Shown: positions 2,336 through 62,988 of the stretch, one piece after another | How the letters are laid out: each line of letters starts with the position of its first letter | How positions within the stretch are numbered: the first letter of the stretch is position 1 | Origin: a virus | DNA length: 64,000 nt | Virus record (IMG/VR): IMGVR_UViG_3300013101_000007 | Location: 1-64,000 of that record | Reading direction: 5' to 3' (one strand) | Made by a program: the position numbers and the translations under genes | The notes under the pieces: generated by a model | The model's database searches: none | What the model was told of the DNA's origin: nothing | What the model saw: only the letters and a program-made list of their open reading frames with translations

Positions 2336-2463
2336 ATAAAAAATAAACAAAAACCTACCAAAAACGGGTAATAATCTATCATTTAATACAAAAAAGTGCT
2401 AGATTATTGCTTTTGGAGGTTGTATGCTGTTTCTTGATGCAATCAATTGCAATGGGAATAGCT

Positions 2464-4293
2464 ATGCCAGTAACGATCAAACAAAAATCAGATAACTCCA
2501 CCGGTAAGGCTTTAGGAGCGCAATCCTCTATAACCCTTATAAAATCAAAGAAAGTATCTAAAGCTGAAAATGATGTTCTTCAATCCAATGCTTTATTAAC
2601 GGATGATCTTTTTGAACTTGATTACTTCGATATAAAATCAAATGCCAAAGCCGTAGTATTAAGACCTCCATTTGTACCAACACTCTTAGCTTCCTTGTGT
2701 AAAGAGAATAATGCACTTGAACAGTGCGTAGCGGCTATGGAAGTGAACATTGATGGCACGGGATACGAGGTGGGCTCATCTGAAGCGGGTGAAGAAGAAA
2801 CTGAGGCAGAGAAAGTACAAGCCCAAGGCATAATGGATTTCTTTGATGAAATTTTCCCAGCTAAATCATTCATTACTGTTCGTAGAGAACTTCGCAGAGA
2901 CCAAGAATCAACCGGCAACTCATACATGGAGGTTCTTCGTTCTATTGCAGGTGAAATTGTTTTTGCCAAGGCACTAGAATCTGTAACTATGCGAATAGTA
3001 AAATTAGATGACCCTGTACCTGTAAAGGTAACAATAGAAAGATTTGGTTCAGAACAAACCGTAACTCTTATAAAGCGAGAAAGAAGGTATGTTCAGAAAA
3101 TAGGGGATAAAAGCATATTCTTTAAAGAATTTAATGCAAGTCGTGACTTAAATAAATGGACGGGTGATTGGGCAGAACAAGGACAAAGATTAGCCATTGA
3201 AGATAGAGCTACTGAAATAATACATTTCTTTCCTATAAAAGATGTATTAAGTCCTTACGGCTTACCTAGATGGATTAATCAAATACCTTCCATTTTGGGT
3301 TCAAGGAAAGCCGAAGAATTAAATTTAGATTTTTTTAATGCCGGTGGATTACCTCCAGCAATTATTGCTATACAAGGTGGGGAATTAACCGAGGAAGTAA
3401 GAAAGCAATTAAACACTTATGTTTCTGGAAAAGGAGCATCCAAACATAGAGCGGCTGTAATTGAAATTCAATCAAGTGGTGGCTCATTAGATTCTGCTGG
3501 TAATGTCAGAATGACAGTTGAGCGGTTTGGTGCTGAACGTCAGCAAGATTCAATGTTTGAGAATTATGATAGTAAGTGCGAGAAAAGGGTAAGGTCAAGT
3601 TTTAGACTACCACCTATGTTCGTGGGTAAGGCTGATGATTATTCTTTTGCTACGGCCTTTGCATCGTACACAGTGGCAGAAGCTCAAGTGTTTCAACCAG
3701 AACGTAGTGAGTTTGATGAAGTAATGAACAACACTATTATGAAGGAGATTGCACCGGAATTTATGTTCAGGTCTTTACCTTTGGCTGTTCGTGATGCTAC
3801 CCAGCAATTAAAAGGGATTGAGCTATCAAAAGATTCACTTGATAATGAGGGGTTCGTTAAAGCTATTAACGAAGTAACTAACATGAATCTGAAAATACCT
3901 GAAGGTACGGGAAAACAACCGGCAACTAATGCCCCTGTGGATACTCCTGAAGATGAAGGGGGTGAATCTGATACCATAACCGCATTAGAACCTAAAGCAA
4001 CCCCTGTTGAGCCTACAAAGGTGTCTAAGATTGACCCTATGGTTATGATTGAAATGGCAACCCAATGGGCTGATTACAGTGCGGGGGTTACTATCAAAGT
4101 AGACCCAGAACACTTATACACTGTTATAAAGTCTATGCCAGACGATCAAAGGCAGTTATTTGATGCTTATGTTGCTATTAAATTAATGTCTGGTTTTGAC
4201 CATGACCCAGAAGGGGCTATTGAATTAATGGGCGCGGCTACAGATATATTAATGACTAAAAATGAGTGCTGTACACATGGCGATAAAGAATGA
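2464..4293 (+). CDS. portal protein (PBSX/XkdE-like)
   Basis: GNSYMEVLR, EIIHF, SPYGLPRW, FFNAGGLP and FRLPPMFVG portal motifs; likely start is ATG 2464 (MPVTIKQK) after GGGA. Confidence 0.9.
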   Translation: MPVTIKQKSDNSTGKALGAQSSITLIKSKKVSKAENDVLQSNALLTDDLFELDYFDIKSNAKAVVLRPPFVPTLLASLCKENNALEQCVAAMEVNIDGTGYEVGSSEAGEEETEAEKVQAQGIMDFFDEIFPAKSFITVRRELRRDQESTGNSYMEVLRSIAGEIVFAKALESVTMRIVKLDDPVPVKVTIERFGSEQTVTLIKRERRYVQKIGDKSIFFKEFNASRDLNKWTGDWAEQGQRLAIEDRATEIIHFFPIKDVLSPYGLPRWINQIPSILGSRKAEELNLDFFNAGGLPPAIIAIQGGELTEEVRKQLNTYVSGKGASKHRAAVIEIQSSGGSLDSAGNVRMTVERFGAERQQDSMFENYDSKCEKRVRSSFRLPPMFVGKADDYSFATAFASYTVAEAQVFQPERSEFDEVMNNTIMKEIAPEFMFRSLPLAVRDATQQLKGIELSKDSLDNEGFVKAINEVTNMNLKIPEGTGKQPATNAPVDTPEDEGGESDTITALEPKATPVEPTKVSKIDPMVMIEMATQWADYSAGVTIKVDPEHLYTVIKSMPDDQRQLFDAYVAIKLMSGFDHDPEGAIELMGAATDILMTKNECCTHGDKE

Positions 4294-61111: not shown

Positions 61112-62945
61112 AAGAGAAAGGATTAATCAAGTAATTGATACTCAGATACCGTCTTACCATAAAGAGTTTTTTATGGAGATATTACGTGCTAGACAGCACG
61201 GAGTAATATCTGCAATAGAGAAGAAGTACAAACGCTTACCAGTACCAGCTAATATATTCATTAATGAGCAGACATTATTAGGGACTCCAAACACGTTGTA
61301 TCCTGAGATAATGAAGTGCATGGTTGATCTGAACAACGGGACGTACACTGAAGCAGTATTAACCGGCTCAATAGGGTGTGGCAAGACGACTTTAGCCTTG
61401 TACACCACCGCATACCAGTTATATTTATTATCGTGCCTTAGAGACCCTCACAGAGAGTTTGGACTTGACCCTGCTTCAGAGATAATATTTATATTCCAGT
61501 CAATCAATGAGGCACTTGCAAAGCAGGTGGATTTTGCCAGATTTAAAGCAATGATTGAGAACAGTGAATACTTCACCAAGCATTTCATGTTTGATAGGAG
61601 TCTGGAATCTAAATTAAAATTCAATAACAGAATAGAAGTGATACCTGTATCTGGACAAGAGACAGCTGCCATAGGACAAAATGTAATTGGTGGGGTGATT
61701 GATGAGCTTAACTACATGGCGGTTATTGATAGGTCTAAGAGTAGTGTAGATGGCGGCACTTACGACCAAGCGATTGCCTTGTATAACTCATTGGCGCGTA
61801 GAAGAAAATCAAGATTTATGTCAAAGGGCGCATTGCCGGGAGTATTGTGTTTAGTATCCTCCAAACGATACCCAGGCCAATTCACAGATATTAAGATGGA
61901 AGAGGCTCGTAATGAGCTAGAACGTGAAGGTAAAACTACTATTTATGTCTACGATAAAAAATCGTGGGATGTGATACCACCTGAAAGATTTGTAGGTACA
62001 CGCTTCAAGGTATTCACGGGTGATGAATCAAAGAAAGCGTATATCATTACAACCAAGAAGGAACTAAAGAGGCATGAGGATGAACCAGAATTAGTATTGT
62101 CTGTGCCTACTGAGTATAGAACAGAATTTGAAACCGATATGATGAACTCCTTGAGGGAGATTGCCGGTGTAAGTACATTAGCCAAACATCCATTTCTGGT
62201 TAATACTGAGAAGGTTGCAGAGGCATTTAATATTAACCATGAGTCCATATTATCGAGGGAGTGTGTGGACTTCAAAGATACTCAGTTATTGATATACCCA
62301 GAACGGTTCAAGAACTTAAAAGAGCCACGGTGGGTACATTTAGATTTAGCATTGACTGGTGATAGTGCCGGTATGAGTATGGGGTATGTAAAGGATTTCA
62401 AAGCCATTAAGCGTGGTGAGTTTGAAATGGAATTACTACCGAATATAAACATGGATTTTACCCTAGAGATAGAACCACCTAAAGGGGATGAAATACAGTT
62501 CCATAAATTGCGATCATTAATTTATAAGCTGTCTGAGTACGGGATTAAGATTAAATGGGTAAGTCTGGATAGTTATCAATCCTCAGATTTTCTACAGATA
62601 CTACGAGTGAAGGGGTACAAGACCGGCTTAATATCCTTAGATAAAACCACCATGCCGTACAACATAACAAAGACTTGTATTTATGATGGCAGATTAACCA
62701 CTCATCCCCATGCGAAACTAAAGCATGAATTATTATCACTAGAGATCGACCAGAAGAAGGGCAAGATTGACCACCCAAGCACTTCCACTAAAGATGTATC
62801 TGATTCTTTAGGCGGTGTAGTTTACGGATTGACCACTAGAAAAGAGATATGGATTAGGCATAAAGTGCCATTAAGTAAAGTACCTCAGTCAGTTGTTGGG
62901 GCTTTAGAATCACAGGCTTCAGCAGATAATATAAAGGGTGCATGA
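61074..62945 (+). CDS. terL: terminase large subunit
   Basis: Walker A GSIGCGKT, Walker B VIDE, nuclease HLDLALTGD, DSYQS, KIDHP..KDVSDS. Confidence 0.9.
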   Translation: MMAYMKKSNREIKRERINQVIDTQIPSYHKEFFMEILRARQHGVISAIEKKYKRLPVPANIFINEQTLLGTPNTLYPEIMKCMVDLNNGTYTEAVLTGSIGCGKTTLALYTTAYQLYLLSCLRDPHREFGLDPASEIIFIFQSINEALAKQVDFARFKAMIENSEYFTKHFMFDRSLESKLKFNNRIEVIPVSGQETAAIGQNVIGGVIDELNYMAVIDRSKSSVDGGTYDQAIALYNSLARRRKSRFMSKGALPGVLCLVSSKRYPGQFTDIKMEEARNELEREGKTTIYVYDKKSWDVIPPERFVGTRFKVFTGDESKKAYIITTKKELKRHEDEPELVLSVPTEYRTEFETDMMNSLREIAGVSTLAKHPFLVNTEKVAEAFNINHESILSRECVDFKDTQLLIYPERFKNLKEPRWVHLDLALTGDSAGMSMGYVKDFKAIKRGEFEMELLPNINMDFTLEIEPPKGDEIQFHKLRSLIYKLSEYGIKIKWVSLDSYQSSDFLQILRVKGYKTGLISLDKTTMPYNITKTCIYDGRLTTHPHAKLKHELLSLEIDQKKGKIDHPSTSTKDVSDSLGGVVYGLTTRKEIWIRHKVPLSKVPQSVVGALESQASADNIKGA

Positions 62946-62988
62946 TAACCAGTGCAATCAATTGCAATTAAAATAAATAAGAAATGAT

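Follow-up and report, generated by a model that had tools for sequence, protein, structure and literature searches.

Why does a phage carry the same short near-palindrome every few kilobases along its genome, and what reads it? The DNA analysed here (the window) comprises bases 1 to 64,000 of a 79,739-base virus record, whose GC content of 37.6% lies slightly above the ~36% first judged by eye. It contains the 14-letter word TGCAATCAATTGCA in 14 exact and five one-mismatch copies, in both orientations, and all 19 positions listed in the original prediction proved correct. Dinucleotide shuffles of the window gave 0.08 expected copies at up to one mismatch and never more than one. The full 79.7-kb record holds 18 exact and six one-mismatch copies and no two-mismatch copy, a mean of one site per ~3.5 kb along the entire ~80-kb phage. 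The gaps between sites measured 1665 to 5954 bases, matching the predicted 1.7–6 kb, and are strikingly regular: their coefficient of variation is 0.35, as compared with 0.94 under random placement, and 20,000 simulations produced no equally even array. The claim that the array lies far above chance also held under a synonymous-codon shuffle that kept every protein, where 0.24 exact in-gene copies were expected and 10 observed. Taken as a whole, the sites amount to an array that spans the genome and is strongly selected.

How is this array fitted into a genome whose genes all lie on one strand? Gene junctions are clearly preferred: 13 of the 24 sites in the record are non-coding, though non-coding DNA makes up only ~7% of the genome, and the median distance of a site to a gene boundary is 21 nt instead of the expected 150 (60 nt or less for 18/23). 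In the window, a stop codon precedes the exact sites at 5309–5322 (intergenic; 16 nt before), 17071–17084 (1 nt before, with the next start 18 nt after), 34636–34649 (4 nt before; the site is followed by CGGGGGTTTTTT) and 46913–46926 (2 nt before, with a recA-like gene 15 nt after), the one-mismatch site at 28682–28695 (intergenic; 5 nt before), and two overlapping exact sites with a 10-base period at 56238–56261 (5 nt before), which head a 320-base non-coding stretch in front of a ParB-like gene. The one-mismatch site at 39830–39843 overlaps the stop codon of a DnaD/O-like initiator gene (38789–39832), and the exact site at 36301–36314 sits in the leader behind a promoter at 36218 and overlaps the start of an HNH endonuclease gene at 36310. 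The exact site at 2438–2451 lies either 31 nt inside a long TTG-started portal ORF or immediately before an ATG at 2452. The starts within about 15 nt of a stop codon that had been noted for most other copies are a matter of geometry, because a 14-nt site and a ribosome-binding site together fill a 30-nt gap.

Other sites are written into proteins. Exact copies encode the peptide QLIA at 10216–10229 (46 nt from the gene start), at 12020–12033 (gene 11764–12147), at 22137–22150 (the middle of the 3.8-kb gene 20426–24187) and at 26655–26668 (gene 25349–27274), whereas one-mismatch copies encode QSIA at 15056–15069, deep in the 4.3-kb tape-measure gene, and QPIA at 59645–59658, near the end of an IbrB-like ORF. 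The original prediction noted a single reading frame for the in-gene copies. The common frame is real (8 copies in the window by our own ORF calls; 9/11 in the record) but is no signal in itself: codon usage alone predicts 60% of in-gene copies in it (P ~0.12), and it reflects coding constraint because the other frames require Cys or create a TGA stop. Of the 18 early promoters, 4 are preceded by a site 12–27 nt upstream, against 0.16 expected. The three distances first reported were right, namely 13 nt between the one-mismatch site at 41871–41884 (stop codon 1 nt before) and the -35 box of promoter 41898, 22 nt between the exact site at 62953–62966 (terminase stop codon 8 nt before) and that of promoter 62989, and 27 nt between the exact site at 51071–51084, in the last codons of a RuvC-like gene, and that of a promoter discussed below.

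Selection on the sites is equally visible between phages. In a relative, G016, which is only 70–78% identical (68–83% in the DNA flanking the sites), ~15 of 19 alignable sites are kept, while neutral survival of 14 letters at this divergence is ~2%. The copies starting at 2438 (homologous place), 5309, 12020, 17071, 26655, 46913 and 51071 are kept; that at 10216 has one mismatch in G016, that at 15056 is lost, and the one-mismatch copies at 28682, 41871 and 59645 are exact there. The word recurs in phages spanning 37–64% GC, cultured carriers including Stenotrophomonas phage DLP5 (27 exact copies) and Rhodobacter phage RcZahn (a degenerate form); among the others, G001 has 45, G007 52 and G002 50 copies at up to one mismatch. 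Genomes carrying such a lattice have 24–59 sites each. The word is letter-perfect between phages whose proteins are 30–55% identical and whose GC contents lie 25 points apart, and is better conserved than any protein of these phages.

In bacterial genomes that contain a prophage of the group, copies are concentrated in the phage DNA; one such genome has all 19 of its copies in a 48-kb stretch and none in the other 4.65 Mb. Because copies are confined to the phage region, the reader should be phage-encoded. Relatives of this phage are temperate, episomal or prophages: some related records are proviruses, a lattice variant of its own is found on a circular 109-kb Rhizobium plasmid, and DLP5 is a phagemid (PMC5834331). 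No integrase or repressor was found among the roughly 50 window proteins scanned.

The form of the sites hints at how they are read. In this phage the consensus reaches ~18 bp (A-K-TGCAAT-CA-ATTGCA-M-T). The predicted conservation of the centre stands insofar as it is limited to the CA/TG step; its orientation is free, being CA in 8 and TG in 10 of the 18 exact copies on the plus strand of the record, and it flips between relatives at the same place (as at 41871 in G016). That the centre is always the asymmetric CA/TG step is unexpected if the reader is a symmetric dimer, and this counts against the explanation that we favour. The arms of relatives vary symmetrically on both sides (TGCACT, TGAACT, TGACAT, TCCAAT, GGAAAT, TGCAAC), and single-arm changes are uncompensated in 6/6 one-mismatch sites of this phage and in ~20/31 in G019. 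Two-sided variants together with tolerated single-arm changes fit two half-site readers rather than a stem. In line with the earlier proposal of a dimeric phage protein, we consider it very probable that the palindromes are docking sites for a phage-encoded, two-fold-symmetric DNA-binding protein.

Which phage protein is the reader? Of the four candidates originally put forward, the product of 51346–52197 (plus strand; P0001, 283 aa) is best supported; the other three, encoded at 56553, 58981 and 45934, lack a conserved upstream site. Its label as DUF3102-like did not survive, as it has no Pfam match. A site ends 0–150 nt upstream of 29 of 60 related 51346 loci, against ~4.5 expected; these loci were gathered via the 51346 protein itself, which makes its co-occurrence with lattices circular. 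The same test gave 0/37 loci for the MerR-like gene at 45934 and 2/55 for the neighbour of that gene. In this phage the site lies 262 nt from the ATG of 51346, and in VHS1 no site precedes the homologue. The counterparts of the 51346 product in cultured phages include DLP5 gp067, RcZahn gp66 and VHS1 ORF86. A site upstream of a 51346 homologue can equally be called a site after RuvC.

The predicted model of the 51346 product starts with a disordered, basic K/T/A-rich tail (residues 1–38) that leads directly into a helical, ParB/KorB-like helix-turn-helix (HTH) domain (~40–175), followed by an acidic linker and a ribbon-helix-helix-like C-terminal part. With VIA-align, the central domain matched the ParB DNA-binding domain (6s6h, Z 8.3), Spo0J (1vz0, 7.6), KorB with operator (1r71, 7.1) and KorB (8qa8, 6.0), and more weakly VirB, SopB and P1 ParB (Z 4.2–4.7). 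All eight chains at Z of at least 5 were ParB/KorB or Raf1, an unrelated Rubisco factor that topped the ranking (Z 9.8). Helical models often reach Z 6–8, and Foldseek returned nothing significant, which leaves the fold match middling; the protein has no sequence-level link to ParB/KorB. ParB_N (the ParB/Srx CTPase domain with GxxRxxA) had no Pfam match in the product or in 37 homologues, and KorB-like sliding therefore cannot be assumed; longer fused forms were not found, which is weak evidence. The C-terminal part, also devoid of a Pfam match, aligned with the N-terminal ribbon-helix-helix domain of MazE9 (Z 3.8 over 43 residues), and its sequence pattern LSTLTFKVHDDQK...ANVALESICMAYL fits a strand-helix-helix unit. 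Finally, the R-K pair of the presumed recognition helix, otherwise invariant, is altered only in altered-arm lineages (L155, L196, L179/L188, L159), a match that is incomplete because TGACAT and TGCAAC arms occur beside an unchanged helix and the lineages are not independent. We consider the 51346 product the probable reader.

What would such a reader do? A two-fold-symmetric protein made by the phage would dock at the 14-bp near-palindromes through an HTH folded like the DNA-binding domain of ParB/KorB but devoid of the CTPase, two chains being paired by the ribbon-helix-helix-like end, with a histone-H1-like basic tail attached. It would be made early, from a predicted host-type promoter (early-type sigma-70, consensus TTGACA-N17-TATAAT, 51112–51140, plus strand); the site 27 nt upstream of its -35 box suggests self-control. 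Selection keeps one site per 2–6 kb, at gene junctions where possible and in-gene where a gene is too long, and evenly spread sites would let the reader begin binding everywhere on the chromosome. The purpose may be to silence or organise the one-directional genome, comparable to KorB on plasmid RK2 and to mycobacteriophage stoperators, a suggestion that we hold tentatively. On balance, we lean towards the complete explanation: a docking array, read by the 51346 product, that silences or organises the genome.

Alternatively, the palindromes could be parS-like loading sites for a protein with a ParB N-terminal domain, encoded at 56553–57158 (plus strand) or by the IbrB-like gene 58975–59700, which would load and spread with CTP to serve partition or compaction. 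In that case the 51346 product would either play no part or act as a partner by providing the DNA-binding domain. The 56553 product retains the GxxRxxA motif, its gene lies 292 nt downstream of the only tandem site of this phage (298 nt for the tandem of a close relative), and a ParB-like gene is found near the terminase in G001, G008, DLP5 and RcZahn, in G008 directly after the 51346 homologue. Yet the 56553 product is conserved in its N-terminal 130 residues only, shows no conserved DNA-binding domain, and has relatives that are often DNA methyltransferase fusions. A site within 300 nt upstream of the ParB-like gene occurs at only 4/19 loci, and by tblastn the gene was not found in VHS1, nor in RcZahn at 1e-5. 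No ParA/IncC ATPase or KorA-type co-repressor was seen among the about 50 window proteins scanned. This possibility is unlikely, although the protein may still be a partner of the reader.

The sites might instead mark a covalent event: a strand could be nicked there, as in T5-type phages, or a base or the backbone could be modified site-specifically through the IbrA/IbrB-like, GNAT and glycosyltransferase genes. The even spacing would be in keeping with interruption sites, but known phage nick sites are asymmetric and confined to one strand, in contrast to the two-fold-symmetric sites here. Genes for an IbrA-like PAPS reductase, an IbrB-like ParB protein, a GNAT and a GT2-like protein do precede the terminase, and in the relative DLP3 the DNA withstands all 15 restriction enzymes tried (PMC7326821). 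However, protection from 15 different enzymes speaks for a general rather than a site-limited modification, and the IbrAB pair is not common to relatives that carry the identical word. A covalent mark is thus quite improbable.

Could the palindromes act as RNA or single-stranded DNA hairpins that signal, for instance, processing, termination or priming? Every site is transcribed because all genes lie on one strand, many sites occupy gene junctions, and the arms co-vary symmetrically between lineages. But the hairpin is weak (a 5-bp stem, -2.5 kcal/mol), an Rfam search gave no match, the sequence itself is fixed within one genome beyond mere pairing, and the one-arm changes described above are uncompensated, all of which makes this reading very doubtful.

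Slightly less credible is the MerR-like HTH protein (45934–46419, plus strand) as reader. MerR-type dimers recognise palindromes, and the gene belongs to the syntenic core in G001, G007, G008, DLP5 and VHS1. The protein is, however, only 23–30% identical among phages with an identical word, tblastn did not detect its gene in the TA-centre group (the densest lattices) or in RcZahn, its loci lack an upstream site altogether, and the palindrome that extends over its own promoter is another one, TTGACAATTA-N15-TAATTGTCAA. Least probable of all is a conserved host protein: hosts are mostly Proteobacteria and the core ATCAA resembles half of the IHF consensus, but ATCAA is missing from TA-centre variants, similar hosts carry phages with different word variants, and the word is absent from, or at most singly scattered in, host DNA outside phage regions. 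The array is not a host regulator box.

What would a docking array read by the 51346 product mean? No paper on such a genome-wide lattice was found in the literature searched, although several cultured phages carry it. If the favoured explanation is true, a hitherto undescribed genome-wide DNA-protein system operates in a wide group of 80–100 kb siphophages of Vibrio, Stenotrophomonas, Rhizobium, Rhodobacter, Pseudomonas and many uncultured hosts. It would be a second, independent case of long-range replicon control by a ParB-fold protein, here without CTP, and a natural example of selection for even site spacing. The homologue family comprises more than 2,000 sequence clusters. The system can be tested directly, since 54 records of cultured phages have the candidate reader; among these carriers, DLP5 and DLP3 form stable lysogens. 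Annotation is concerned as well, as the protein is now labelled 'hypothetical', 'ribonuclease E/G' or 'ssDNA-binding' in GenBank. More speculatively, and with considerable doubt, this large unnamed family may have retained the DNA-binding fold of ParB while losing the CTPase and acquiring a histone-like basic tail, its members starting to bind at evenly spaced palindromes and coating or looping the whole viral chromosome: a virus-encoded chromatin that would silence or organise an 80–100 kb one-directional genome in episomal or integrated latency, with site spacing set by the reach of each bound unit.

How does the lattice compare with known systems? ParB-parS, Noc-NBS and the N15 centromeres all rely on palindromes of 14–16 bp whose reader has a ParB-fold HTH, and the sites of Noc and of the phage-plasmid N15, which has four dispersed centromere palindromes, are scattered along the replicon. 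The readers carry a CTPase domain, and those for partition work with ParA. The palindromic 13–16-bp site in several copies per replicon that marks ParB/KorB systems is found here too, and the candidate gave fold hits among ParB-type readers (6s6h, 7ol9, 6y93). These systems nevertheless have far fewer sites per kb (four in N15), and even spacing is unreported for them.

KorB on the IncP plasmid RK2 is similar in that one palindromic operator, OB, is scattered over a mobile genome, a few bp upstream of promoters as well as far from any, and its reader, a dimer with a ParB-type HTH, brings about global silencing (PMC11790492). The 51346 model aligns to the DNA-binding domain of KorB in both structures cited above, and in the relative G011 only 6–8 bp separate many sites of a dense 19-site cluster from a -35-like box downstream, as in KorB operators close to promoters (PMC11790492). 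RK2 has 12 operators (PMC11790492), in contrast to the more numerous, evenly spaced and often in-gene sites of the lattice phages, and the candidate reader lacks the CTPase N-terminal domain, its basic tail and ribbon-helix-helix-like end replacing the C-terminal domain of KorB.

The stoperators of Cluster A (L5) mycobacteriophages are dozens of repressor sites in the short intergenic gaps of long one-directional operons, where they silence the prophage (PMC4351075), and sites here are similarly concentrated at gene gaps. Stoperators, however, are asymmetric, oriented with transcription and bound by a monomeric immunity repressor, whereas the sites here have two-fold symmetry and are found in either orientation. 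Cluster O mycobacteriophages carry a 17-bp dyad repeat, TGTTCGGNNNCCGAACA, in more than 30 copies throughout a siphophage genome, about one third of them in-gene, many in intergenic DNA or close to gene ends, and the majority off promoters; a dimeric DNA-binding protein was predicted, no reader was proposed and the role was left unassigned (PMC4351075). Lineage, host phylum and word are unrelated, even spacing is unreported there, and Cluster O phages are not known as temperate (PMC4351075), while the lattice word is conserved across hosts of 37–64% GC. The lattice shares with them more than 20 near-identical palindromes genome-wide, between and inside genes and mostly not at promoters.

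We recovered all 19 copies of the 14-bp near-palindrome TGCAAT(CA/TG)ATTGCA reported in the original prediction, 14 exact and 5 with one mismatch, against 0.08 copies expected in the window from dinucleotide-preserving shuffles. The source IMG/VR virus record (79,739 bases, linear, 89% complete, 37.6% GC, nearly all genes on the + strand) holds five further sites past the window, at 66999, 70205, 72938, 75435 and 79255, and carries 18 exact and 6 one-mismatch copies overall. Site quality in this record looks all-or-none, exact or one mismatch only: two-mismatch copies number zero in the whole record, though several arise in synonymous shuffles of the same proteins. 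The centre is CA/TG in 24 of 24 sites, and the word reaches outward to ~18 bp, with A or C at +1 and T at +2 in 73%. The stretch is present as contigs in five DNA sequencing runs (sediment and marine); megablast of 20 kb against cultured phages returned no match, and Rfam and tRNA scans of the window returned nothing.

Both the spacing of these sites and their maintenance go beyond chance. When the overlapping pair 56238/56248 was merged, the resulting 23 loci were separated by gaps of 1665–5954 bases with a coefficient of variation of 0.35, compared with 0.94 for random placement, and 0 of 20,000 simulations were as even; the sites of six genomes of the group are likewise evenly spaced. Permuting synonymous codons within each gene, which leaves every protein unchanged, predicts 0.24 exact in-gene copies, and 10 were observed. 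We also compared the phage site by site with its relative G016, a collinear genome of 89.8 kb with terminal repeats and 38% GC whose DNA is only 70–78% identical. Flanks could be aligned for 19 sites, and about 15 of these, among them copies within genes, remain sites in G016, whereas neutral survival of 14 letters at this distance would be ~2%; the centre can flip between homologous sites.

Sites concentrate at gene boundaries. Thirteen of 24 lie outside coding sequence, which makes up all but ~7% of the genome, and 18 of 23 loci fall within 60 nt of a boundary versus 25% expected (median distance 21 nt versus 150 expected). The three sites farthest from boundaries are inside a 4.3-kb tape-measure gene, a 3.8-kb gene and a 1.9-kb gene, as would follow if gaps could not exceed some maximum length. 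Two regularities noted earlier were observed again and proved to have simpler causes. Sites do start within 15 nt of a stop codon, but this is no separate signal because the junction gaps that carry a site measure ~30 nt and are filled by the site (14) and a ribosome-binding site (~15). A shared reading frame was seen in 9 of 11 in-gene copies, but codon usage alone predicts 60%, and the other frames need Cys or give TGA; the frame preference is put down to coding constraint and carries no signal. Orientation bias was likewise rejected as a signal: the preponderance of the TG form among in-gene copies comes from Leu (QLIA) being more frequent than Ser (QSIA). At 36301–36963, the start of an HNH endonuclease gene (phrog_953) coincides with part of a site. 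The aligned region of G016 lacks this gene, which is possibly a recent mobile insertion beside the site.

Many IMG/VR contigs contain the exact 14-mer, and complete or near-complete relatives carry 26–52 copies at one mismatch or fewer. The proteins of these relatives are only 25–57% identical to those of this phage, and their GC content is 55–62% (38% to 64% for related loci), which places the present phage at the low-GC extreme of the group (37.6%). Among cultured phages, TGCAAT-NN-ATTGCA occurs 27 times in Stenotrophomonas phage DLP5, and Rhodobacter phage RcZahn has a looser form of the word and Vibrio phage VHS1 the half-degenerate TGNNNTTAATTGCAA. Relatives also show centre variants, TA (59 sites in the related genome G011) and CG, and arm variants in which both arms are altered together (TGCACT, TGAACT, TGACAT, TCCAAT, GGAAAT, TGCAGT and TGCAAC); their flank preferences differ from those of this phage and are again symmetric.

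What does the word represent? A hairpin could form from it, with a 5-bp stem of −2.5 kcal/mol. Within a genome, however, the sequence itself is fixed beyond pairing, and single-arm changes are uncompensated in 6 of 6 cases here and at ~20 of 31 sites in the relative G019, consistent with a dimer that contacts each half-site of duplex DNA independently. That the word might be a common host regulator box was checked in four bacterial genomes with a prophage of the group: copies are concentrated in the phage region (one genome has 19 of 19 within 48 kb and 0 in the other 4.65 Mb), and the word is therefore not a host box. An IHF-like reading was rejected on the TA-centre variants, which lack ATCAA.

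Which protein could read the sites as such a dimer? The core genes common to all relatives include three candidates for sequence-specific binding: 51346–52197 (+), the MerR-like 45934 and the ParB N-domain gene 56553. Several lines of evidence point to the 283-aa product of 51346. A site ends 0–150 nt upstream of its homologue in 29 of 60 non-redundant related loci versus ~4.5 expected, usually at 53–109 nt; these loci were gathered with the 51346 protein as query, so its plain co-occurrence with the lattice proves nothing. For the next gene, a site lies upstream in 2 of 55 loci. In this phage, site 51071 precedes by 27 nt the −35 of an early-type promoter, which drives a short ORF followed by 51346; DLP5, RcZahn, the related genomes G001 and G007, and a Rhizobium plasmid share this arrangement. 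When a DNA-binding gene always has the site ahead of it, it usually encodes a regulator that controls itself. The protein family is large, with 2,126 cluster representatives at an E-value of 1e-10 or lower; its members in cultured phages include DLP5 gp067 (ATS92308), RcZahn gp66 and VHS1 ORF86. Pfam has no family for the product or its 37 homologues, so the former label "DUF3102-like" was dropped. Its AlphaFold model (mean pLDDT 81) predicts a disordered basic tail, a helical domain (residues 40–175), an acidic linker and a C-terminal helical part. In VIA-align, the helical domain aligns with the ParB DNA-binding domain (Z 8.3), Spo0J (7.6) and KorB with operator (7.1 and 6.0); weaker alignments are to VirB, SopB and P1 ParB, and the highest-ranked row is the Rubisco factor Raf1 (Z 9.8). 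The C-terminal part resembles a ribbon-helix-helix unit (MazE9, Z 3.8), and the ParB N-terminal CTPase domain is absent. Foldseek of the model against PDB gave no hit with E of 0.001 or lower, and PDB searches by profile and by single sequence gave no informative match for any of the three candidates. Longer fused forms of the 51346 product were looked for and none turned up, though this counts only as weak evidence. The presumed recognition helix, GYRKAMY, contains an Arg-Lys that varies only in lineages whose arms have also changed and is invariant elsewhere. Because two of the arm variants are found alongside an unaltered helix, this correspondence is only suggestive, and no clean residue-to-base code emerged.

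The other two candidates fared less well. The ParB-like gene 56553–57158 has a site within 300 nt upstream in 4 of 19 loci and is conserved in its N-terminal part only; its relatives are often fused to methyltransferases. The MerR-like gene 45934–46419 has a site upstream in 0 of 37 loci, is poorly conserved and found no tblastn match in the TA-centre group. Its promoter is spanned from −35 to −10 by a 35-bp palindrome, TTGACAATTA-N15-TAATTGTCAA (45871–45905), which differs from the lattice word and is likely the protein's own operator. Just before the ParB-like gene and after the tandem site lies a 320-base non-coding stretch (56234–56552) with direct repeats (GGGAATGGC twice and CTTAATACCTA twice) and a promoter-like TTGACC-N17-TATATT; it might serve as an origin, a packaging site or a centromere-like region. 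Further along, directly before the terminase, 57446–60500 encodes a GNAT protein, an IbrA-like PAPS reductase with DUF3440, an IbrB-like ParB_N protein and a GT2-like product, which together may constitute a module for DNA modification. In the relative DLP3, the DNA is resistant to digestion by 15 restriction enzymes (PMC7326821).

What would binding by the 51346 product accomplish? The record contains 18 near-identical host-type promoters (TTGACAAT, a 17-nt spacer, TGTATAAT), at 2005, 36218, 41898, 43653, 51112, 62989 and 63839 in the window and at 64716–79281 past it. Each is followed by a conserved leader ending in AAACGGATTAAAC a few bases before the ATG, an unusual shared translation-start context that marks early genes. 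Four of the 18 have a site 12–27 nt upstream versus 0.16 expected, among them the promoter ahead of 51346. Site use is far denser and more promoter-linked in G011 (79.5–87.4 kb; locus L175, 12582–20455) than in the window: 19 exact TGCAATTAATTGCA sites stand 300–500 bases apart. Many of them precede a GCTTGCA/GCTTGAC −35-like box by 6–8 bp, and a terminator hairpin often comes immediately before the site. Promoter-proximal KorB operators have this 6–8 bp geometry (PMC11790492).

Most sites are far from any promoter and evenly spaced, which argues for a role requiring that the whole chromosome be covered. Several related records are proviruses, DLP5 is a phagemid (PMC5834331) and DLP3 forms stable lysogens (PMC7326821); in this phage itself, no lysogeny genes were found among the roughly 50 window proteins scanned. 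The circular, non-mobilizable 109-kb plasmid p7 of Rhizobium bangladeshense (L228, NZ_CP071625.1 29048–69587) has 21 TGCAAC-NN-GTTGCA sites in 40 kb, mostly at or a few bases from gene junctions, and its replication and recombination genes follow the order seen in this phage group. It resembles a phage-plasmid that has escaped recognition, a phage-like episome. Whole-chromosome coverage, temperate or episomal relatives and the KorB-like promoter geometry together lead us to favor genome-wide silencing or organisation that would start from the sites.

In full-text literature, the 14-mer, its centre variants and the 12-mer cores matched only primers; the papers on DLP3, DLP5 and RcZahn mention no palindrome, and the searchable literature holds no paper on this word or the 51346 family. 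By analogy, the closest mechanisms are stoperators, the dyad repeat of Cluster O mycobacteriophages and KorB with its OB operators. Stoperators are asymmetric and oriented, unlike the sites here. The 17-bp dyad repeat of Cluster O, whose reader and purpose were not established (PMC4351075), forms the same kind of array. KorB would share its fold with the modelled 51346 product and also uses a scattered palindromic operator, with the promoter-proximal geometry of the G011 cluster; the 51346 product, in contrast, is missing the CTPase domain, and the array described here is far denser and more even.
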